Source: Cyanidioschyzon merolae (lineage: Eukaryota). From it: a stretch of 64,000 nt of DNA. The DNA lies in NCBI GenBank assembly GCA_000091205.1, contig AP006500.2, one strand, 5' to 3'. The notes under the pieces are model-generated. The model saw nothing but the letters and a program-made list of their open reading frames with translations, did no database searches and was not told the origin of the DNA. Shown in pieces: positions 7,644 through 60,965 of the stretch. Within the stretch, counting starts at the first letter, position 1. Each line of letters starts with the position of its first letter. The position numbers and the translations under genes were made by a program.

Positions 7644-8117
7644 TCTGACGTCGGCAGAATCCGGAACGTCTCCAGAACGCGCCACTGGTACCCGTGGCGA
7701 CAACAGCGGCAGAGCAGGTGCGCTCTTGTGCAGACTGTTCAGTACCGCGGTCGCGATGCTACCGCTGGCGCTAGCCACAGGGTACCCATGTTCATTGAAT
7801 GGAATGAGGGCTTGCGGGCAGTCCTGGCGCCAACTGCCTGCAATCCGCAATGTCGGCTTCGTGCGCACGTATGTCACTTCATGTGCACGGCACGCATGCG
7901 GCCTATCGGCAGACGCGCGTTCTCTGTAGCGGCTCGCTGCCTCCGAAATCTAAAGCCCATGTTTTAGTTTACCTCAAATGATACATAGCTGTCGAGAATG
8001 CTGCGTACCGGAAACATCCAAGTACCTGGAGCGAAAGTCACGGAGCACGTCTTGCATCCCAGTGGCAACCTGGAAGCGTCAACTCCCAGGGGAAAAACCA
8101 CCACACGGGGCACACAC

Positions 8118-8353
8118 CATCACCGCCTTTCGAAAGTCGAACGGCAGCAGTGTACAGTAGTGGCGGCAACCGCGCCCTAGACGAAACGTCTCCAACCGAC
8201 GTGCAGACGCCTCCCGGTTTTTCTCGACCGAGCACCCACTACTGCTTCCAACTTCTTTTCATATAGTTCCACTTTGAAAGGTTATCCAATAAAGTTCTCT
8301 CTTGTCGACTCTGGAGGTCTCTTCTCCAGCACCGCACATTTCCTTATATTGAT
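8118..8353 (-). ncRNA. Candidate omegaRNA scaffold / right-end module of the Fanzor element. It overlaps the last ~23 codons of the nuclease ORF and ~165 bp downstream.
   Basis: A ~235-bp block conserved at roughly 85-90% by eye with 22601..22837; its core is conserved again at 28636..28674. It contains short perfect hairpins (ttcga-aag-tcgaa at 8129..8141; gacg-aaa-cgtc near 8181..8191). Its position relative to the ORF matches the TnpB/Fanzor omegaRNA architecture. Homology stops sharply at 8118 in both copies, as expected for an element end followed by the guide. Confidence 0.45.
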
Positions 8354-10540
8354 AGCGGCATTAAAGTCTCGGTTCACGAATTCCATCCGTTTCTTGCTAT
8401 CACTTGTTGTACTAACCAATGCAAGTAGCCCTCGCACTTTTGCCCTCCTCTCCATTTGCTCCTCCGTCAGCGGTCCGTACTTTGCTATTTCCTCAGGATT
8501 CCGCTGGCACTTTTCCATCCCGACCCTTCGAAGTGTACACCCCAGCTCGTGGTGTGTATAGGACGTTCGGAACTCATCCACAGGTATCGTAAAGAGACGC
8601 CTTGCGCACTCTTTGTACGCTCTCGTCGTTGGAGCTGGCGTAGTTCCTTTTAGGGTCTTCCATCGCCCTGCACCGTACGCTACTACGAGCCTCTGATTTT
8701 CATTCTCCTTGAGCGCGCTCAACTGATTGAAAAAGTTGGCGAACGCCCGCTGCCTCCCACCGTATAGATGCATACACAGACGAGCCCACCGGGGCTTGGT
8801 ATACTCCTCCCACAGCGCATCCCAATGGGCAACACGAACTCCCATGGATTTCCGGAAAGCTTCAAAGTCGGCTCCTCGGCTCGTCACCTCGCTCAACGCT
8901 TCCAGGTGATCCTTCATTCCTGAATTCCAAGTCTCGATTTCCTTCCTCGCATTCATGATTGCCGATTCTCGATAGTATCTCGCTCTCGAGAATCTCAACA
9001 GACGCATATCTTTCTGACGTAAGTTGCCGTCAGTACCATCTTCCGCACGCTTCGGTGCTGCGACGGCTATAATATTCGTATTTCCAGGGTCCGCGCCAAC
9101 GATAAAGTCGTTATCCTGCACTTTCTGCTTCTCAGAGCCCGCCTTGTTGTTTTCTTCATGCTTCGTCGCGTCTACGACAAGGTCGTTATCCTGCACTTTC
9201 TGTGTGGCAGGATCCGCATCCTTCTCATCTCCATGCTTCGTCACGTCAACGATAAAGTCGTTATCCTCCACCTCCTGCGTCGCAGGACCCGCCCCTTTGT
9301 TTTCTTCATGCTTCGCCGCGTCAACGATAAGGTCGTTGTCCTGCACCTCCTGCATCACAGGATCCGCCTCCTTGTTTTCTTCATGCTTCGTCACGAGCGC
9401 AGCCAAGGGCGGAACTGGACGATCTTTCTTCAACCGCCAATAGCGTATACACAAGGCTACTCCATCGGTTTCGATCAACCCAATGAATACCTTCTTCTTG
9501 CTCACTTTGAGACGTTTGAAATCGAAGATGCTCATCCAGTACGTCTCCCGGTTTTCGCCGGTGAAGTCCTCCCTGCTAAAATCGAACTCGGGACTGATCT
9601 CCCTCATGACGCCATGAAGGATTCTGGAGTCGATAGTCACAAAATGTGACTTGATGTTGCCCAACGGAACCACGTTGAAGCGCTTCCCCATTAGGAAAGC
9701 CTTCCGTCTCTCCCACTCTTCATTTGTCTCTTCACTCAGCATCACCTCTGCCTTGCGTTCGATGTCACGATCCAGAAACACGAAATACCGCAGGACGAGG
9801 CGATAGTATCTTTCCTTCTCTTTTTTCAACGCTAATATCTTGTCTGTTGGATTCACCAGCCCCAGTCCCGCACGATCCTCTTGTATAACCGCACGGATCG
9901 TAGAGGCTTCATTGGTGCTCACCTTTGACGTCGTCTTGTCGACAAATTCGACCTCATCTTCACGCTTGCGATCTTTCATGATGCCATTGATAATCGCCCA
10001 TTTCCCATTGCGAGAGATGCCCGAGTAGAGTGCAATCACAGCGCGTCTCATGAAACGTTCGAGGTTCACTGTCAAATGGTTCTTCAGATTCGTGATGTAC
10101 TTCATGGGCCTATATGTGTAAATATCCCGGTCACCCTTGTATCGAGTACCATTGAGGCTGTAAAAGGGATGTTTTTCGTGGAAGACATCCACCCGCTCAT
10201 TTTCCTCCCGCGCTTCCTCTGTACCAAGCGTCAGCTGACGAATAAAAATCTTGTCGAAAAACACGTGTGGAATCTCGACCGTTTCGATGGGCGTCACGTC
10301 GCGATACATCTCCCTCTCCAAATGCATCAGTCCTGACGACGCCTTGAAAATACTCTTGGAGTACGAGTCCACACGTTTTTTGATAGCGTCTCGCAACTTT
10401 TCCTTGTAGGGATCCTTGATATGTCCAAGAAGAAAGGTTTTCACAACCATCTCGTCGTACAGTTGTCTTTCTTGCCGCCTTCGACGTAGGGTATCCCCCT
10501 TTCGGTTCTTCTTCTCTTCCTTTTCTTCTGGACTAGACAC
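8282..10540 (-). CDS. Fanzor (eukaryotic TnpB-like, RuvC-fold RNA-guided endonuclease; OMEGA effector), Fanzor1-like. It has a long N-terminal extension and an internal acidic tandem-repeat insertion.
   Basis: 752-aa ORF. RuvC-I: '[18 protein letters not shown]'. RuvC-II: '[18 protein letters not shown]'. RuvC-III: '[18 protein letters not shown]', which matches the DxNAAxNI signature of TnpB/Fanzor. Spacing is I-to-II ~170 aa and II-to-III ~70 aa. The region between II and III has only 2 Cys (non-canonical zinc finger). It is embedded among eukaryotic housekeeping genes. Confidence 0.75.
9098..9396. repeat. Coding tandem repeat of 4 x ~75 bp inside the Fanzor ORF.
   Basis: Units begin 'acgataaagtcgttatcctgcac...'. 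They encode ~25-aa acidic repeats '[26 protein letters not shown] / [24 protein letters not shown] / [26 protein letters not shown] / [19 protein letters not shown]'. The last unit runs into the RuvC-I motif. Confidence 0.8.
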
Positions 10541-10760
10541 TGTTTTTTGTTTTTTCTGGCAGCCAGCGACACTGGGCCTCCAGGATCGTCGATTTGCTTT
10601 TTCATAACTTTCCTTTTTTTAGTTTTTTTGGAAAAGAACGCTCCCTCAACGCCTCTGATATAAACAGCGAAAGAAAACTTGAAAAAACTAAACTGAGGGT
10701 TGAAATATAACTGAACTGAAAAGTATACTCTGCTGTGACTTTAACGCAAATACAACGTGC
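10541..10760 (-). promoter_or_regulatory. AT-rich 5' flank, the putative promoter/5'UTR of the Fanzor ORF.
   Basis: The local AT content is much higher than the surrounding GC-rich sequence (poly-T/A runs and TATA-like 'ttatattt' on the sense strand). It lies immediately upstream of the ATG at 10540. Confidence 0.3.
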
Positions 10761-10940
10761 ACTTGAGAGCAACACGCTCAAGATCGCGATCCCGTTTCCC
10801 TTCAACAACGACATGCGCGTCGTATTTCATGCCTCCCAGATATGGAGGTGCGCGTATCGACCGCGATGCCCCCTGGCACTCGGACGTGAACTCCAAATAC
10901 CCTCAATAGAAGCATTAGCAGCAGGCTGCCGGGCACGCAT

Positions 10941-11708
10941 ATGGGCCAAAGGGCCCGCCATGCGCACCTGGTTCAGTCGGATTTTCATGCAGACCCCAAC
11001 GCACCGCAAGAACTCTTGGACGAAATCGACGCAGATTTGGCTGAAGCGCCTCTTAGGCGAAAACATTCTCCCCAATCGTTCCCCAGAAATATAGAAGGCT
11101 CCCGCCGCCTGAAGCGAACGGTCCAAACAACAGTACGGGAATGTAGACATGCAGTCAGTCGCGCGAGTAACGCCGGCTTGACTCTATACCGGAACTACAG
11201 CCTAGCCTGTTCATGCACGTACTGGTGGGAGGCGCTGGAGTTCACGGGACTTGCTCGAGGTACACAGTGGCTCGCCAAAATCCGCGTTGGTGGCTTCTGG
11301 CTACCAGCACCGGCTCTAAGCCGTATAGGAACACTGGAATCGCACTGGGAATCACACTGTCCCTGCTATCGAGACGAAATCCCCGAGACCCTGACATATG
11401 TAGGCGTACAGTGCCCGCGCTGGAAGCAGGAGCGCAGCGAGCTCCTTGAAGGACAGCAGCAGCTGGGCATCACCGTGATAGTCGAAGGCCGGACACTCAC
11501 TCTGAGTGTAGCACTGGCAACTGATGGTCCGCTAACCGAGCATCAGCGCTCATCAATGGCGAACAAACGCATATGCTACCTTCTAGGTGGAAGATCCAGC
11601 GGATCGGATGCGCACACGGGCTCAGTGCGCTCTCTGCGCCTACCTTCTGTGGTAGGTTTCAAGCACAAACCCGCATTGCCAACCGACAACAACGCATTCC
11701 ATGCATGA
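10941..11708 (+). CDS. Hypothetical ORF with a zf-RVT-like motif (CPxC...ET...CP...W), as found at the C-terminus of non-LTR retrotransposon ORF2 proteins. It is a possible decayed LINE fragment.
   Basis: Motif 'HWESHCPCYRDEIPETLTYVGVQCPRWKQERSEL'. No RT catalytic motifs were seen. It lies between the Fanzor start and repeat B on the opposite strand. Confidence 0.25.
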   Translation: MGQRARHAHLVQSDFHADPNAPQELLDEIDADLAEAPLRRKHSPQSFPRNIEGSRRLKRTVQTTVRECRHAVSRASNAGLTLYRNYSLACSCTYWWEALEFTGLARGTQWLAKIRVGGFWLPAPALSRIGTLESHWESHCPCYRDEIPETLTYVGVQCPRWKQERSELLEGQQQLGITVIVEGRTLTLSVALATDGPLTEHQRSSMANKRICYLLGGRSSGSDAHTGSVRSLRLPSVVGFKHKPALPTDNNAFHA

Positions 11709-11945
11709 TCACGAAGGAGAGAGGCGGCTCCCAGGATATATCCTAACAGCCAAGTTTCTCCAGCGTGTCGTGCAGCGAAGGCAAGCCTGCATCCGCAGAC
11801 TGTCCAAGCACAAACTGACGACGAGGCCCGATTCTACTTCAGGTGAAGTACGCCTCGAGCCGATGCCCTCTGGGGTATAGAAAAGCAGTTCTAGCTCTAT
11901 GAACTATCTGATCCAGCGGTACAGGTCCAAAGGTGGATACGGAAA

Positions 11946-12139
11946 GGCAGGTACTAGGCACACTCGATAGGACGTATGAAACGACCAGAACATCCGAGAT
12001 GAAGTATATGTACTGTAACTTGGAGGTAGGGTGTTTGATAGATACCTCACCGCGCTCTGAAAAAATATAAAGTAAGAAAAGAAAAATGCGCATAATCGGA
12101 GAACGCTGGCCCAAGTAAACGTCTTGTCAATGAAAAAAA
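11946..12139 (-). repeat. Repeat family B, copy 1. It is the reverse complement of the copy at 22838..23027 and a possible element left-end region.
   Basis: Roughly 85% identical by eye over ~190 bp to the reverse complement of 22838..23027. Homology extends through 'gtcaatgaaaaaaa' (12126..12139). The plus-strand TATA-like 'tataaag' (about 12066..12072) has no counterpart in copy 2. Confidence 0.6.
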
Positions 12140-14824: not shown

Positions 14825-16504
14825 AACATCGTCGGCGTGAGAGAAGCAAAAGGTTGAGCGGCTCAAAAGCATCGAATCTGGTGGACACTTGCGCATTCAC
14901 TTCCCACAGTATGCGTTTGCATGCCGCAGGCGCCGCTGCAACAGTCAGAACTCGCATTTTTGCAGCCGCGTAATCGCTTCCATTTGGCGAATCCAACTTG
15001 ATTGTACCGGAAACCGGCACAGACCTGATTAGACCAGTGAACCTTGAAGATATCGTTCGTCGGAAGCCAGCATTTGCATCGCGATTCGTGTGGGAATGTG
15101 TTTGCTCATTCGCTGGCTCGATCATTCCAGTTAGAACAACGGCAACGACAACAACAGAAGTAGCCCCTGGCTTCTCATGGTATTGGTGATGGCAACGCAG
15201 ACACCGGATGCCGAGCTGCTTTCGCGCACAGTGTTCGTCGAAACGTGTTCCCTCGGCAACGGGACGACAAACGTCGTATCCCCAGGATGGTTGGAGCGTG
15301 ATGTCAGACTTACACGTTTCGTGCACAACTATGGTTTCCACAAAACAGCCCCCAGAACGAAGCAGAAGCCCTCGTCGATTCCGACTGCTCGCGCCTCTCC
15401 AATCGTCTGGTCGATGTGAACCCCACGTGTCACATCAAGATCCATGATATCGCAGGAGGCTCGTCTGCACTGTACGAGACGGCCTCCTCTGTGAGCTACC
15501 GCTGATCTCTGGGAACGAGTAGAACGCGTTCGAACAACATCGCGATAACGAGTAGCGGAGCTCGTTCCAAGCTGCTCGTATATAACGAAGAAATGCAAAG
15601 CAGTTTACGCGGACGAGAGAGTCCCGCGGAGTATCGGTCTGGATGCACTGTGTGTAAACGAGGACACATATCCAAGAGTCGTGCAGCGATGCTCATTTCC
15701 AACCGTTCAACGTAGGTCATGAGAGAGGCTTCGTGAGGCGCGTGAATCTCGCTTTGCAAGGCGTCATCGCTGTCGAAGCACTTCCACATCAGGAAGATGG
15801 AGCCAAATACCTAAACGGAAACCAGATGAAGCTGTTCGACTCTCACAGGCTCTGCTTCATCGAGAGTCGAACGTGATGATCGCCAGGATCGTTACGAAAA
15901 TGGAATAAAAGCGTTAGTGCCCGTCTTATCGTTCCAAGCGTCCTGTCGAGCAGCAAGGAAACGCGCTGCGCGCAACATTCAAAGCAAACATGAGCGTCCT
16001 AATGACTCAGACCGACGATTCCTGGGAAGCGTACATGAGGCTGCGCTGCTGTCGCCAACATATTCGGTCTCACGGAGGCAAGAGGCATGCATTCGCTAAC
16101 ATGCTCAATGATGCGGTTCACGACTTGTTCGGCAACCTATAACAGGGCGAAGTTCTCGCGACCGATGGGATGGCAAGCTGTGCGTCGCGCCAGTGGGGCA
16201 TGGCGTCCAAGCAACTGGGACCCATAGAATGTGCTTCGAATCTTGCACAGTATCAATGGAAAAACAGAAGCGCTTCATGAATCAGTCAGCAAAGGAGTAC
16301 CGCATTCGGATCTCCTCGCATCAGAATCGACTCCTTTCACCCCGCACACCAGTGAAACCCTGCGGTGCAGTGCTCGGGACTTAGCCGAGCCAGAAACCCC
16401 AACTCTTTGCTGTAAGACCTCACTGGCAATGTGCATATGCTGCATCTTGCGGGTCTCTGCATGATGCCGTCCCCGATACATGGAACAGATTGGTTAGCTT
16501 CTCT

Positions 16505-21697: not shown

Positions 21698-22600
21698 TCT
21701 CTTAGTAGTTTGGGCTGCCGCCCGATATCGAACTAGAGCAGAAAGTAGAAAAGCTGCAAGCTTTCGAAACTGTTCGTCCGACTAGGGACCACAGATGTGC
21801 TATCAAGGCAGGCGGCCGCGGAATCTACGCTAGCCAGCGCAGCGGAGCGTTGGCGCACGAGTTCCAACTGCTGGGCAGCAAGTCGAAGGTTATGGCGTTG
21901 ACGGCAACGCAATAGTGACCCAACCGCTTTGTGAATGGAGTGCATCGAAAAGCGTTCATGTCAGTATTCGCGCTGAGCGTGAATTGATTTCGGCTCGGTG
22001 CTGTGCTCTGGATCGAGAGCTGGTCGGTTGCTACGCGGCGAGGCAGCGCCTTGACGGATCTGGAGCGGGAGGTCCTGGTTTGAGTACCAAAGCAAGTTGG
22101 CGAAAGAAATAGGTAAAGTGGCCAAGGTTGTCGGACAGGATTGTGTGACGCGAAGAACAAGGTTGACTGAGCGGGTAGAGGTTGCGCTGCGATGAAGACG
22201 TTAACTTCGAATACAGAGAGTTCCTTGAACCTGTATGGTGCAAAGGCAGGCAGCTATTAGAGCGATCTTGCACGCGCTTGCGACCAGCTCGAGCGTGCGG
22301 TGCGCGTCTATCCGCGAATCGCTGGCTCAATCAGTCTCAATCTTTTGATGTGATGATCCGTGGATACAAATTGAATAGGTGACAGACCGTTATATCGTTT
22401 GCTGCGTGCAGTAGCTCCCGGGCATTGTACACGCAAGCCTGCACTAGGTGCTACAGTGATAAACAGATTCATCTTAGACGAGCATCATCCTCCAGATCAA
22501 TGCACATGCAGGCCTATCATAAAAGAAAAAAGGTGAACGCGCAGGGATTCCCCAGAAACTCCACCTACTGACAAGAAAATTCTGGACTGAAAAGGGTTCG

Positions 22601-23027
22601 CATCACCACCGCCGTTCGAAAGTCGAACGACAGCAGTGTGCAGTCGTGGCGACCGGCGCCCTAGACGAAACGTCTCCAACTGACGTGCAGACGCCTCCCC
22701 GTCTTTTTGGACCGGCCACCTTCTACTGCTTCCAACTTCTTCTCATATAGTTCGACTTTGAGAGGTTGTCCAACAAAGTTCTCTCTTGTCAGCTCTGGAG
22801 GTCTTCTCTCCAGCACCGCACATCTCCTGATACTGATTTTTTTCCATTGACAAAATGTTTACTTAGGCCAGCGTCCTCCGATTCTGCGCATTTTTCTTTT
22901 CTTACTTTTTTTTCAGTGCGCGGTAAGGTATCCATCAAACGCCCTACCTCCAAGTCATATTCCCTATACTTCGTCTCGGATATTCTGGACGTTTCATACG
23001 TCCTACCGTGTGTGCCTAGTGCCTGCC
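22601..23027. mobile_element. Solo composite remnant: module copy 2 (22601..22837, omegaRNA-scaffold/right-end homolog in the same orientation as locus 1) joined directly to repeat B copy 2 (22838..23027). It lacks a Fanzor ORF.
   Basis: The module homology ends at the position equivalent to 8353, inside the Fanzor ORF 3' end. The B homology begins at the very next base. B is inverted relative to its orientation at locus 1. Short overlapping ORFs here are just read-through of the repeat. Confidence 0.55.
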
Positions 23028-27989: not shown

Positions 27990-28700
27990 ATTAAAGACTT
28001 TCCCATGATTTCCGGCGATGTCCTTCAACTGGACAGCTTCCCAATTCACCATTCCACTTGCGCTCGAGCTTCTCCCGATTTTGTTGGAGTAGAGCCACTT
28101 CTCATTCCGCCGTACACTCCGTGGGTGAACCGCATCTAAGAGAGAGTTTTCTATTGTGGAGCGCAATGGTCGCTGCACTCGGAGAATCCCTGTGCCATTC
28201 AGCAGTCAGCGACACCGAGACACTTGCCGTCTTTTTCCTGCAAGTCCTTCTTGCTCCGGGAAGGTTCTTACGTGGGGGCATAAGCATGTGCATTGATTTT
28301 CAAAATTAAAGACCCTAAGGCATGCGCCGAGTGTACAGTTCAGAACATCGTTATGGAGAGCAGGCAGCGGAGTGCTGAGGACATAGAAAAGCACGGAGAG
28401 CTGCCGGAGCACCAAACGGCACAGAGGGCGCGAGTTCTTGGACTCCTCGCACTGACCAGTTCAACCAATCGCAAGAAACACATTGAGTTCATGAACTGAG
28501 ACTTTACCGCCGCCATCAATATCAGGAGATGTGCGGCACTGAAGAAGAGACCCGCGGAGCTGATGCGAGCCAGCCTTGTCGGACAACCTCTCAGTGTCGA
28601 GGTGTATAGGAAAAAGCTGAGGCTGATAACAGACAGCCGGTCGAAAAAAAGCTGGGAGGCGTCTGCAAGTCGGTGTATGTATGTGCTCTATGATCGCGAA
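27990..28700 (+). pseudogene. Degraded Fanzor/TnpB-like paralog. It has frameshifts and an in-frame TGA before the RuvC-III motif, has lost its stop, and is followed by a partial copy of the omegaRNA-like module (core 28636..28674).
   Basis: '...TAQRARVLGLLALTSSTNRKKHIEFMN*DFTAAINIRRCAALKKRP...' aligns with the locus 1 C-terminus '[46 protein letters not shown]'. Upstream fragments 'SHFSFRRTL', 'IVERNGRCTRRIPVP', 'DTCRLFPAS' match 'AFANFFNQL', '[19 protein letters not shown]', '[11 protein letters not shown]' in shifted frames. Downstream, 'ccggtcgaaaaaaagctgggaggcgtctgcaagtcgg' matches the reverse complement of 8196..8232. Confidence 0.5.
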
Positions 28701-57594: not shown

Positions 57595-57920
57595 AATGCA
57601 GACGAAACGGTAGTTGCTCTATCAGCAACGCTGAACAGTGCGCGAAAAGCAACTGTGTTTGCGCGCAGGTCCGCTCGCGAAGCCAGACGCCGCAGGCTAT
57701 ACCTTTCCGCAGAACGCGACTTTCGATAACACCTTCCTAGTGCTGTTTGGTACAGCAAAACTGTCCAAGGAATCCAAGAAGCTTCACAGTCCAGTGCCTG
57801 CAGTTGACGCAAACATAACCCCGCACCGTATCGGTCGTGAACACAATGCCTTACGTCCGCAGCTCAAGCGAGCACGCTTTGGGTTCTAGGTATAGGAAGC
57901 GCTTCGCCCTGCATTGTATT

Positions 57921-58440
57921 ACGCTATGAAGTGTTGGATTGTAGTACACTAGGATTTGTTATATAGTTTTACGCTATGAAGTGTTGGATTGTAGTACACT
58001 AGGATTTGTTACATTATTTTACGCTATGAAGTGTTGGATTGTAGTACACTAGGATTTGTTACATTATTTTACGCTATGAAGTGTTGGATTGTAGTACATT
58101 AGGATTGGTTACATTATTTTTAAGCTATGAAGTGTTGGATTGTAGTACATTAGGATTTGTTACATTATTTTTAAGCTATGAAGTGTTGGATTGTAGTACA
58201 CTAGGATTTGTTACATTATTTTACGCTATGAAGTGTTGGATTGTAGTACATTAGGATTTGTTACATAGTTTTACATAATAAAGTGTTGAATTTTAGTACA
58301 CTAGGATTGGTTATATCGTTTTACATTATAAAGTTTTGGATTGTAGTACATTGCACTGCATTGCTTTCATTTGTCACATCGCTTTACACGATGATGTTAT
58401 GGACTGTAGTTCATTGCACTGCATTGCTTTGATGTGCGCG
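57921..58440. repeat. AT-rich minisatellite: ~9 tandem copies of a 50-52-bp unit ('acgctatgaagtgttggattgtagtacactaggatttgttacattatttt'), followed by 2 copies of a related ~50-bp unit ('cattgcactgcattgcttt...').
   Basis: Period read directly from 57971/58021/58071/58122/58174. It lies in the divergent intergenic region between the giant gene (start 57594, minus) and the cyclophilin gene (plus). Confidence 0.85.
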
Positions 58441-59498
58441 ATGTACCGTCGAGCGTAGCACTGGCGTCGACGGCGCCTGCTACGAGTACGGCTCGAGGGC
58501 TGGTTTCGTTGCGCATTCGCCACGTGCTCGGGAAACGGTGCCGGGTCCACAGGTTAGGTCTGAGACGACTGGAAACCTGTCTAGGTTAGAGGGGCGTTCA
58601 TCAAGTACTACTACGTAGGCAACAGGAAGCCGTCGTTCCAGGCGTGAACGGTGTCGCGGGAATAGTCAGCGTGGTGCAGCGCGGGCAAGTTGCTGTACGC
58701 GAGTACGCGCGGCGTTTTTATCCCGGTTTGCAACGCGGCTGCTGCCAGCGTCTGTACCTACACTTTGCCAAAAAAAGCAATTTCCAGATTTTCGGTCACC
58801 TGGAAGGGTTTTATCTGAGCACTACGGACCACACGCCGTTCGGCTATGCTGGCTGCCACCGCATGGAACAGCACACTGCACGGAGAGGCTCCAGCGAGCA
58901 CTTGAGCCGTTCTCGGGGCGTGCGAGCAACAGCACGCAACGCTACGTCCATAAATGGAAACGAGGGTTTTTATGCAGCTACTTGGAACGTCGTCGTGGTG
59001 TGCAAGCGGGTGCCAGTGCCGTGTGCATCAGCTTTGAGCAACTTATGTTGGATTTCACAGCCGCGGCTTTGGATTCAAAGCCACAGCAGCAATCGCGGCT
59101 TTGGCGCGTCCGTTTGCACCCAACCAACGGGCGAGAATCGACATGTGCGCTCGAGTACGCATCCCATGGACTACTGGCTTCGTACTAGGACACATTGCCG
59201 CCAGACTCGGAGGCGTTCCCGCAATCGCGCTCGTTTTCGCGTAGGCGCTGAACCTTTAGCAACCCCAACTCCAAATCGTCAAACTACTCTGTACGGGAGA
59301 TGTGGATGGCAGTGGGCGCATGGGAGCTTCCAGCGCGTTCGAGCTACAAAATTCCAGACCCTGGGCGAGAGCACCTGCCGTTTGGTGCTGGCAACTGACG
59401 GCGATGGACGACCAAAACGATCGCCCTGCCATTGGCAACGAATGCGAATGCTCGGAGAGCCCGCTTCGAAAGGATGCACAGCCGCTGAAACTAGCAGA

Positions 59499-60965
59499 AT
59501 GGGAAGCTTGATGCGGCACTCGCTGACAAACTTGCGGCTCGATGTTCCCAGCCTTGTCGATACTGGTGTGCGCTGGGCATGCGCGCTGGTGATATCCGCC
59601 GGTGTCACCCTCTGTGGTGTCCATCCGGATAGCGTGGCTGTTGGTCGCGCGTCTGCAGCAGAAGGCGCTTCCGACTCCATTGCAGACTTTGCACGAACTG
59701 TTGGTGCTGCCCAGCCACGAACCAGCATCGATCGATTTGGGAACCCGCTGCTCCGTCGATACGTTTCAACGGATGGAGCGGCAGTTTTGCGGTGGTCGCT
59801 CCCGTTGCCAGAAGACTCCCCTTTTTGGGAGATTCAACGCCAGCTAGAACAGGTGGACGTCGAATTGAGCTTACGCGGAAGCTTCCGCCGCGGTCTGCGT
59901 GAGGCGCTGAAGAGTGCTCGCCAGGCGCTCGCTGCTCTGCAACGAGAGCGTCTCGATATTCTGCTCGATGTTGGCCGTGAACAAGTTGTCGTTGACACCC
60001 TCCGAAGAACGGAGCAGGAAATCACCCATCTTGTCGAGTCTCTGGAGCAACTAAACGCGTTGGGCCCGGGCTCAACGCAGCCGACGATACGCAGCGTGGC
60101 GGCAGCCGTGCGAGCGGAAGCATCCGCGTCCCGCTCGGGGGCCTTGGCGGAGCTCGCTCGCCTCGAGGAGGCCAGCATACGCCGTGTGCCTTTTCGCATT
60201 CCTCGTCGATACGATGACGAGGCGCGGCTGCGAGGCCGAGCGCTGGTACGACTCTACCTGGAAGCGCCGAAGACGACCGCCGGCGCTCGCCCAGCCCGCA
60301 GCGATACGGGGCAAACGCGCGGAACACCTGCACCTTGTGTGCTGCAGGTCGTGGTAGACGGCTGGAACGCCCCGCTCACATCCGGCAACTTTGTTCGGCG
60401 AGTGCTTGCCCATGAATACGACGGCATGCCGCTCATCGCGGAAGAGCAGGGCTCCTTCGTTTTCTTCAGCGAAGCCGCGAACGACGGCAAGCCTGCTGAC
60501 ACCGAGCATCTGCTTCCGCTGGAGATCCTGCTCGAGGGCGAGCCCGCTCCCCTGTACGGCGAGTCGATCGATACGGCTATGGTGGCAACCCAGCGGCAGC
60601 CGCCGGTGCTGCCAGTTGGCCCTTTCGGAACCCTGGCAATGGCACATTCCACCGAAGATGTCAACGATGCGCAGCGCGCTTTCTACATCTTTACTTTTGA
60701 TAAGCGATCGCTGGCTGCGAATAATCCCACCGGCAACGCCTTTACTGGCACCGTAGCAGTTTTCGGGTACCTTCCGGATGCATCTTCATTACAGTGCCTC
60801 GCAAATTTGCATCCAGGGTATCGGATTCGAACAGCTGAACTGGTGTACGGCAGGGAACGTTATTTTGGCAATGCTGCCGAGGAAGCGCGAGTGCTTGGCC
60901 CAGCGGGTAGCTTTCCAGATGAAATGCGTTTGGCGCTTCTGGAGCGTCGGCAACCTGAAACCTAA
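59499..60965 (+). CDS. Thylakoid-lumen cyclophilin-type peptidyl-prolyl isomerase (CYP38/TLP40-like), with a helical N-domain plus a C-terminal cyclophilin-like domain. The ORF is open from 58644, but the start is placed at Met 59499 preceding a putative bipartite transit/lumen-targeting peptide.
   Basis: The C-terminal 'VVDGWNAPLTSGNFVRRVLAHEYDGMPL...LPLEILLEGEPAPLYGES...PFGTLAMAHSTEDVNDAQRAFYIF...GTVAVFGYLPDASSLQCL' is collinear with the plant CYP38 '[28 protein letters not shown]...VPLEIMV...PFNAFGTMAMAREEF...GRYAVFGYVTD'. N-terminus: 'MGSLMRHSLTNLRLDVPSLVDTGVRWACALVISAGVTLCGVHPDSVAVGRASAAEG', a hydrophobic stretch followed by AxA. Confidence 0.8.
   Translation: MGSLMRHSLTNLRLDVPSLVDTGVRWACALVISAGVTLCGVHPDSVAVGRASAAEGASDSIADFARTVGAAQPRTSIDRFGNPLLRRYVSTDGAAVLRWSLPLPEDSPFWEIQRQLEQVDVELSLRGSFRRGLREALKSARQALAALQRERLDILLDVGREQVVVDTLRRTEQEITHLVESLEQLNALGPGSTQPTIRSVAAAVRAEASASRSGALAELARLEEASIRRVPFRIPRRYDDEARLRGRALVRLYLEAPKTTAGARPARSDTGQTRGTPAPCVLQVVVDGWNAPLTSGNFVRRVLAHEYDGMPLIAEEQGSFVFFSEAANDGKPADTEHLLPLEILLEGEPAPLYGESIDTAMVATQRQPPVLPVGPFGTLAMAHSTEDVNDAQRAFYIFTFDKRSLAANNPTGNAFTGTVAVFGYLPDASSLQCLANLHPGYRIRTAELVYGRERYFGNAAEEARVLGPAGSFPDEMRLALLERRQPET

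Follow-up and report, generated by a model that had tools for sequence, protein, structure and literature searches.

Does the 3′ end of a Fanzor1 nuclease gene in Cyanidioschyzon merolae also serve as the template of the guide RNA (omegaRNA) that the nuclease would use? The question is raised by a 64,000-nucleotide stretch of contig AP006500.2 (hereafter the window), where an earlier note, made from the letters alone, had proposed that a hairpin-rich block at the 3′ end of the gene, conserved at two further places in the window, forms an omegaRNA scaffold followed by a guide read from the flanking DNA. Our follow-up places the gene in the transposon family CMe-1A and points to an omegaRNA with a scaffold ending near position 8122 and a flank-derived guide as the most likely function of the block, a reading that we hold to be probable because of the homology of the system with SpuFz1, GtFz1, PpFz1 and TnpB and because of its layout. 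The layout proposed earlier does fit that of the characterised Fanzor1 systems, with a hairpin abutting the boundary, whereas the boundaries and guides given with it were wrong. What is new here is a candidate guide RNA for a family that has already been described; otherwise the locus is as expected of any Fanzor locus.

A Fanzor1 nuclease gene of the CMe-1A family

As a single sequence, the open reading frame (ORF) has no significant match in Pfam or PDB, and family profiles were needed to place it. The profile of the 68-member family matched only Fanzor1 chains in PDB (PpFz1, 8.6e-24; SpuFz1, 4.1e-18; GtFz1, 6.7e-12), and the columns of the RuvC triad, D484 (GADPG), E656 (VDEFRTS) and D725, are invariant in the 68 sequences, with a split D...E...D arrangement and an RD motif near the C-terminus. 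These matches and the invariant residues bear out the identification of the ORF as a Fanzor in the earlier note, and the predicted product is a TnpB-like Fanzor1 nuclease. An AlphaFold2 model of the ORF (12 sequences) had a mean predicted local distance difference test score (pLDDT) of 51 and a predicted template modelling score (pTM) of 0.36, too poor for a fold search on the TnpB/Fanzor domains (WED, REC, RuvC and TNB).

CMe-1A is the sole Fanzor1 family described in the C. merolae genome, by Bao and Jurka in 2013 (PMC3627910). It was reported to have about 150 copies, each ~80% identical to a consensus of ~3 kb, some of them with intact ORFs, and to be without terminal inverted repeats (TIRs), with target-site duplications (TSDs) undetermined and class unknown (PMC3627910). 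The ORF and the block belong to this family, an assignment made through the host and the match to the published description, because the same genome, the copy number, the ~80% identity, the length of ~3 kb, the lack of TIRs and the small number of intact ORFs all fit. CMe-1A is thus an old, non-autonomous transposon family that carries Fanzor1. A metagenome scan returned more than 513 relatives, from which 80 loci (designated by L numbers below) with protein identities of 78-88% were fetched; their sources include the Yellowstone metagenome Ga0078972 (PMC8986864). For the comparison of right ends, ~45-50 distinct copies were aligned.

Two features of the ORF itself vary within the family. The GTG at 10538-10540 that opens the ORF as listed is also the family consensus at that column, and the first ATG (10448-10450) follows 30 codons later; otherwise similar copies (L027 versus L043) have different sequence before 'ERQLY', and the protein may have another N-terminus or a 5′ exon. 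Within the ORF, three tandem 75-nt units (9094-9393, minus strand) encode a 25-residue repeat just upstream of RuvC-I, and the number of units varies among family members in the protein alignment.

A former coding tail and the true right end

The block was measured as the last 23 codons of the ORF plus 164 nt beyond the TAA at 8284-8282 on the minus strand, in agreement with the ~23 codons and ~165 bp given in the earlier note. In blastn, positions 8115-8353 match 22601-22837 on the same strand with 87% identity over 239 nt (E=2e-79). Most of the sequence beyond the stop is nevertheless not the non-coding DNA that it had been taken for. The codon aligned to the window TAA is CAA in 35 of 43 copies, CAG in two and TAA in one, and the proteins P0006 and P0007 as well as the second copy in the window read Q at this position; from here the frame, with the consensus GQPLKVELYEKKLEAVVGGRSKKTGRRLHVSWRRFV across copies, runs for 34 codons to a TAG at 8179-8177. 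Diversity at the three codon positions is 0.186/0.150/0.256 in this tail versus 0.147/0.127/0.231 in the ORF body. This coding-type periodicity and the prevailing CAA indicate that ~105 bases among the 165 'post-stop' ones are former coding sequence, put out of use at this locus, and the true non-coding end amounts to ~55 nt. A C-terminal tail of 34 codons has thus been lost in the window copy alone, through a change of CAA to TAA. The native CMe-1A protein probably needs 34 more C-terminal residues than the window copy encodes, which matters for experiments.

The non-coding right end opens with GGCG (8176-8173), followed by a variable loop, CGCC (8165-8162) and the conserved CGCCACTACTGTACAC (8165-8150), and closes with a terminal hairpin. 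Per-site diversity is lowest in the stems and in ACTACTGTAC and reaches 0.4-0.6 in the loop. The stretches of lowest diversity are the pair GGCG/CGCC, between which the loop varies, CGCCACTACTGTACAC and, further upstream, the coding-tail motif GGGAGGCGTCTGCAC.

A common 3′ boundary and corrected guide templates

The homology of almost every copy (~45) to the window ends between 8110 and 8124, and the two members of the pair L027/L041, 99% identical over the last kilobase, are unrelated straight after GGCGTT (...ACGGCGTT). A covariance model of the last 132 positions, run on distinct loci, gave 43 matches that all ended at the same point; the allelic duplicates share this end except for three loci cut at a contig end. 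The sharp right-end boundary of the earlier note is therefore real and recurs in ~45 copies, but it lies at 8122 and not at 8118: the element ends after GGCGGT at 8122 in the window and at 22608 in copy 2, and its end may lie up to ~7-11 nt further out. With these ends, the predicted guides move by 4 nt in copy 1 and by 7 nt in copy 2, the 20-mers previously placed past 8118 and 22601 having started that much too far out. The candidate guides would begin GAUGGUG... in copy 1 and GGUGAUG... in copy 2, and these starts, together with a scaffold end near 8122, are corrections that matter for experiments.

The flanks are not random next to the boundary. GGTG starts 0-4 nt past it in 18 of 42 independent 3′ flanks, compared with a background of 2% (p=7e-20), and some subfamilies share 11-13 nt past the hairpin. 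The bias may reflect either a few more element bases after a variable spacer or an insertion-site preference. The flanking GGTG often occurs as G[AT]TGGTG[CT]G, examples of which in the window are 8121-8112 and 22607-22598.

A terminal hairpin that probably acts on the sense strand

In most copies a hairpin lies 0-2 nt from the boundary, though not always with the same sequence or in the same register. Variant types include GTCGTTCGA/TCGAACGGC and, in a shifted register, AACGTTTTTC/GAAAAACGTT; L072 has an unrelated 13-bp GC stem, and L027 a clean exchange of G-C to U-A. At least three independent variants swap the stem sequence yet retain the hairpin. In the model-fitted alignment, which leans towards the model, covariation was 0.190 versus 0.122 in shuffles, a value that 0 of 500 shuffles reached, and the terminal helix holds nine of the 13 two-sided pair changes, with nine of its ten pairs changed on both sides. 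The mean folding energy of the last 36 nt was -11.5 kcal/mol for the sense strand versus -8.9 kcal/mol for the antisense strand (paired p=5.5e-8), and -6.2 kcal/mol for random genomic 36-mers; the excess stability of the sense strand arises because many pairs of the terminal hairpin are G-U on that strand. Taken together, the covariation, the asymmetry between the strands and the G-U pairs argue that the terminal hairpin is under selection and acts on the sense strand, as far as sequence comparison can tell.

The short motifs listed in the earlier note are all where it had put them: ttcgaaagtcgaa, the tip of the terminal hairpin, at 8129-8141, gacgaaacgtc at 8180-8190 and the GC-rich ccgacgtgcagacgcctccc at 8196-8215. 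Their structural roles fared differently. The hairpin gacg-aaa-cgtc shows no compensatory change and the GC-rich segment falls in none of the helices tried. The compensatory changes looked for by folding the aligned copies are found in the terminal hairpin (model-fitted alignment) and in none of the upstream helices examined. Inside the ORF, the stem columns of the stem-loop at 8311-8329, four-fold degenerate sites included, are at least 90% conserved and its loop varies; inspection of the alignment, outside the pair counts, found disruptive changes only and none that was compensatory. This stem-loop could be the 5′ stem of a longer scaffold.

A further helix of 9-10 bp between CAGTAGTGG (8244-8236) and CCACTACTG (8163-8155), present in about half of the single-sequence folds, was rejected, its variation being uncompensated; an ORF-less copy also lacks its 5′ strand.

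Evidence for and against a guide RNA

In the sense (minus) direction, the block is made up of the last 23 nuclease codons, the lost 34-codon tail and the ~55 non-coding nt including the terminal hairpin ending at 8122. If it is an omegaRNA template, its sense-strand RNA would end a few to ~20 nt past the boundary. Its scaffold would be bound by the Fanzor1 protein, and the flank-derived 3′ tail starting at 8121 would act as the guide; the window copy itself may be active. Our guess for a minimal scaffold is 8215 to 8122 (~94 nt), although the scaffold may be longer and take in the stem-loop at 8329-8311 as its 5′ limit. The minimal module of ~94 nt (8215-8122) is suggested by the ORF-less copy L050:178-298, which keeps only the part from 8214 to the boundary (~95 nt, from GGAAGCGTCTGCAC to the hairpin) and has unrelated sequence before it. 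This copy is preceded by an unrelated perfect 10-bp hairpin, AATAACGTAG...CTACGTTATT.

A number of observations weigh against this reading. On a plain MAFFT alignment with one fixed register, there was no excess of covariation (0.117 versus 0.117 in shuffles), and the three counted upstream helices had 2, 0 and 0 pairs changed on both sides, which is conservation only. Fold stability was unremarkable, with a z-score of -0.3 when 79 nt were folded, -2.1 when 129 nt were folded and an overall range of -0.3 to -2.3, and RNAalifold gave only -4.1 kcal/mol and nine pairs on the raw 51-sequence alignment. The right-end module has no match in Rfam. A consistent 7-bp stem-loop 1 (SL1), the one stem common to the solved Fanzor1 omegaRNAs (PMC11423790), was not found; the nearest candidates, a 6-bp stem at 8329-8311 and a 5-bp stem at 8190-8180, are both without covariation, the 6-bp stem as judged by alignment inspection. 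The bias in the first 4-7 nt of the flank means that the 'guide' is not free sequence at its 5′ end, or that the boundary lies further out.

Conservation gives no help either. Third-position diversity is 0.17-0.32 along the ORF versus 0.18-0.24 in its last 120 nt and 0.18-0.26 in the block, and no extra synonymous-site conservation was seen at the 3′ end of the ORF. Conservation in the block does not exceed that in the remainder of the gene, and the similarity of its copies, which the earlier note had read as a sign of an omegaRNA, is therefore the ordinary identity of transposon copies and no evidence of a non-coding RNA. Finally, nearly all copies are pseudogenes with many stops and frameshifts, and the window copy, the most intact among ~45, starts at GTG and lacks the 34 C-terminal residues of the consensus.

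The ends of the element as possible DNA signals

The main rival to a guide RNA is that the conserved 55 nt with their terminal hairpin act as a DNA-level transposition signal only, a single-stranded DNA end for a HUH rolling-circle transposase supplied in trans, in the style of Helitron2 or IS200/IS605, with no role as RNA. We consider it rather unlikely that this is the whole explanation; a DNA-level role could also hold alongside an RNA role. The rival draws on the two ends of the element. A near-terminal hairpin is present at the 5′ end as well, as GCGCTC-GGT-GAGCGC in most copies and CGCG-N7-CGCG in the window, and the 5′ junction, near 10869, always falls between an A and T[CA]GCGC, so that the element has hairpins at both ends and a 5′ end starting with T, as in Helitron2. 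We found no TIRs between the CMe-1A ends and saw no TSDs at the inspected full-length copies. By contrast, the asymmetric TIRs of Helitron2 were not found, the best complementarity being 4.34 versus 4.28 in shuffles (16 copies); there is no CTRR terminus, and no RepHel-type gene occurs among the long ORFs scanned, all of them host genes, in a scan that covered the window only.

Many copies have lost 5′ sequence and retain an intact 3′ end (copies 2 and 3 of the window, L050:178-298, L069:1586-1729 and several further loci), L069:1586-1729 being the sole inverted, 5′-truncated copy among the fetched loci. They fit a DNA signal at the 3′ end, and CRe-1/2/3 on Helitron2 show the same syndrome of hairpins at both ends, overabundant 3′ ends and captured 5′ sequence (PMC3627910). 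The biased 3′ flank, too, suggests target-site choice or a terminus a few nt beyond the hairpin. The G-T/G-U pairs of the hairpin, however, favour one strand, which suits RNA at least as well as DNA, and in IS200/IS605 one and the same end is DNA signal and omegaRNA template, so that a DNA role may add to the RNA role and not replace it. In its end hairpins, frequent 5′ truncation and foreign 5′ sequence, CMe-1A recalls the Helitron2-borne elements and IS200/IS605, without a clear place in either group.

The shared core measures 2.75 kb, plus upstream sequence. Upstream of it lie at least three nested repeat groups, which probably include the TE-N2_CMe part noted by Bao and Jurka (PMC3627910); the N-terminal region is mosaic between copies, and no true left end or transposon-adjacent motif (TAM) was identified in this sequence. 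Distant relatives (33-46% identity) sit in elements with related TIRs of 28-34 nt (..AATAATGAAACACC), namely L083:550-3589, with 34-nt TIRs and a DDE_3 transposase gene upstream of the Fanzor gene, and L082:3-3456, with 28-nt TIRs. The ends of CMe-1A have no similarity to the TIRs of L082 and L083, and the comparison thus gave no sign of a Tc1/mariner-type carrier.

One way to join the DNA and RNA roles is that CMe-1A may move like its bacterial IS200/IS605 ancestors, with hairpin ends, no TIRs or TSDs, insertion beside a GGTG-type motif, a terminal hairpin that is both the DNA end signal and the guide-proximal stem of the omegaRNA, and ORF-less modules of ~95 nt mobilised alongside. This is a speculation that we regard as distinctly unlikely; if true, IS200/IS605-like movement in a tractable alga would offer a direct test of the use of Fanzor to its transposon, together with a heat-tolerant Fanzor1.

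Copies in the window and the possibility of relics

The block could also have no function at the window locus, the identity being inherited among decaying old transposon copies and the hairpins being relics. The stops and frameshifts in nearly all copies, a conservation no higher than that of the ORF, the premature stop in the window copy and the fragmentary state of copies 2 and 3 all agree with this explanation. It is improbable in our view, given that the hairpin has been kept through sequence replacement in several subfamilies, that the stems have the lowest diversity and the loops vary, and that coding capacity is retained in some copies despite ~20% divergence (PMC3627910).

The copies are not a segmental duplication, because their flanks are unrelated; recent duplication of the whole region including neutral flanks, which the earlier note had named as a way to explain the conservation, can be set aside on the same ground. 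Copy 2 contains the right end with its hairpin, preceded by the 23 codons and by a tail whose frame is intact. It had been described as a place where no ORF exists; it keeps the frame, with CAA for TAA and 34 more codons to the shared TAG. The edge of the block at 8353 does not belong to the element but is an insertion breakpoint in copy 2, the junction with an A-tailed repeat resembling a long interspersed nuclear element (LINE) that cut this copy short. The third copy, previously noticed as a conserved core at 28636..28674, does exist; it is inverted and extends over 28331-28674, where 85 codons of a degraded Fanzor C-terminus (residues 668-752) have 53% amino-acid identity. The covariance model found copies 1 and 2 in the window (142 and 135 bits), copy 3 weakly (21.5 bits, E=0.023) and no others.

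Positions 15834-16109 on the plus strand match Fanzor residues 515-605 weakly in tblastn (30%, E=4e-5) and may be a further, very old fragment.

Neighbouring repeats and genes

The LINE-like repeat, which we call X, abuts the Fanzor core in the window, and its 255-aa ORF has no Pfam match. Its A-tailed end joins Fanzor sequence directly, with both in the same orientation, at four positions, equivalent to 8353 (copy 2), 10814 (L032/L033), 10867 (L081) and ~10870 (L066), and these junctions could be nested insertions or template-switch chimeras. That the 3′ module is a reverse-transcriptase recognition structure, spread by target-primed reverse transcription with occasional template switching to X, would account for these fusions and for the frequent copies with intact 3′ and truncated 5′ ends, but it is very improbable, since most copies reach the common 5′ core end, the Fanzor element has neither an A-tail nor a microsatellite tail, no TSDs were seen, X has no recognisable reverse-transcriptase domain within the window, and nested insertion in a repeat-rich region is a simpler account of the junctions. 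A resemblance of the end of X to the TIRs of L082/L083 was dropped, as it fell below the preset alignment-score cutoff.

Another repeat of ~1 kb lies upstream of some CMe-1A copies and elsewhere, inverted, ~50 nt downstream of the Fanzor 3′ end (L012:1-966, L053:3702-4661 and L066:1-457); the copies lie in repeat-rich islands. Three neighbouring ORFs are identical to the C. merolae 10D proteins BAM82340-82342, as is the VASt-domain gene upstream to BAM82337; a search for an empty site by way of this VASt gene returned no record. At 57869-58402, eight overlapping 182-nt matches mark a tandem array with a period of 25/50 nt, upstream of an ORF for a CYP38-like cyclophilin (58644-60965). The coordinates of the features discussed are collected in Table 1.

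Table 1. Positions in the window of the CMe-1A element, its candidate RNA features, its further copies and the adjoining repeat.
Feature	Position	Strand	Remarks
Candidate guide template, copy 1 (corrected)	8102..8121 (8121->8102)	minus	GAUGGUGUGUGCCCCGUGUG; start uncertain by up to ~7-11 nt
Terminal hairpin	8122..8148	minus	11 bp with one mismatch; ttcga-aag-tcgaa is the tip; 3′ arm runs up to the element boundary
True non-coding right end, 55 nt	8122..8176	minus	lowest diversity in stems; covariance-model matches end here
Family consensus stop TAG	8177..8179	minus	TAG or TAA in 28/43 copies; CAG or CAA in 8/43
Former coding tail, 34 codons PFKVELYEKKLEAVVGARSRKTGRRLHVGWRRFV	8180..8281	minus	holds the highly conserved motif GGGAGGCGTCTGCAC at 8215-8201
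Stop TAA	8282..8284	minus	premature relative to the family; private to the window locus
Fanzor1 ORF of the CMe-1A copy	8285..10540	minus	752 codons from GTG; 722 from the first ATG at 10450
Stem-loop CTGGAG-N7-CTCCAG in the ORF	8311..8329	minus	present in 39-40 of 51 predicted folds of single sequences
5′ part of the shared core	10541..10869	minus	homology of many copies begins at 10860-10869; near-terminal hairpin
Repeat X, LINE-like	10870..12139	plus	ends in GTCAATGAAAAAAA; copies share the end and have variable 5′ starts; abuts the Fanzor core
Candidate guide template, copy 2 (corrected)	22588-22607 (22607->22588)	minus	GGUGAUGCGAACCCUUUUCA
Copy 2, last 230 nt of a CMe-1A element	22608..22837	minus	blastn, tblastn; covariance model 135 bits; fold z=-2.25
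3′ end of an X-type repeat with A-tail	22838..23027	minus	reverse complement of 11946-12139; ends ...GTCAATGGAAAAAAA; same orientation as copy 2, directly joined
Copy 3, diverged C-terminal Fanzor fragment	28331..28674	plus	corresponds to 8540->8195; 70% DNA identity; without the family's terminal 70 nt

Relation to known systems

Characterised Fanzor1 loci encode the omegaRNA at their 3′ end and take the guide from the flank (PMC10432273, PMC11423790); the omegaRNAs known for Fanzor1 are 75-150 nt long and are found at the 3′ end of the ORF or overlap with it (PMC11423790, PMC10432273). The paper that described CMe-1A (PMC3627910) predates the discovery of omegaRNAs and contains no 3′ boundary, terminal hairpin, coding tail or flank bias, and C. 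merolae is without mention in the searched supplements of Saito 2023. Should the RNA proposed here exist, it would be the missing guide RNA of the known CMe-1A Fanzor1 family. The genome of C. merolae is small and nearly free of introns, and the alga has homologous-recombination genetics and grows at ~42 C. With this tractability, the role of a Fanzor in a eukaryote could be tested in C. merolae, whose Fanzor may be heat-tolerant.

The omegaRNA of GtFz1 from Guillardia theta overlaps the C-terminal coding sequence, and in our reading of the published GtFz1 and PpFz1 sequences the 3′ arm of a stem, of ~10 bp in GtFz1 (Table S3), stands directly before the guide (PMC11423790; PMC10432273), the place that the terminal hairpin would take in CMe-1A. 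By analogy with GtFz1, a CMe-1A scaffold of more than 100 nt is plausible. GtFz1 differs in having a 7-bp SL1 near the 5′ end of its RNA and a TTAA-type TAM, neither of which was identified in CMe-1A.

SpuFz1 and its element Spu-1 from Spizellomyces punctatus are alike in being Fanzor1 and in having copies that are ~82% identical (PMC10432273). S. punctatus has ORF-less 'ghost' loci in which the omegaRNA region is retained (PMC10432273), and the ORF-less copy L050:178-298 resembles them. Inverted repeats of 30 nt and a conserved CA by the left end distinguish Spu-1 from CMe-1A, which has no inverted repeats and a hairpin end.

Among the Helitron2-borne elements, CRe-1/2/3 of Chlamydomonas are similar to CMe-1A in their end hairpins, 5′ T, T-rich 5′ flanks in one copy group, 5′ truncation and foreign 5′ sequence (PMC3627910). 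CMe-1A is unlike them in that asymmetric TIRs were not found and no TSDs were seen on its truncated copies, nor was an autonomous Helitron partner identified among the window ORFs scanned.

The bacterial system that CMe-1A recalls is the right-end element RNA (reRNA) of ISDra2 TnpB, from the IS200/IS605 group, whose scaffold comes from the ORF 3′ end plus the right end and whose guide comes from the flank. ISDra2 carries the Y1 transposase TnpA, and its TAM is defined and lies at the left end; to our knowledge no such transposase or TAM is known for CMe-1A. What IS200/IS605 elements and CMe-1A have in common are hairpin ends without TIRs or TSDs.

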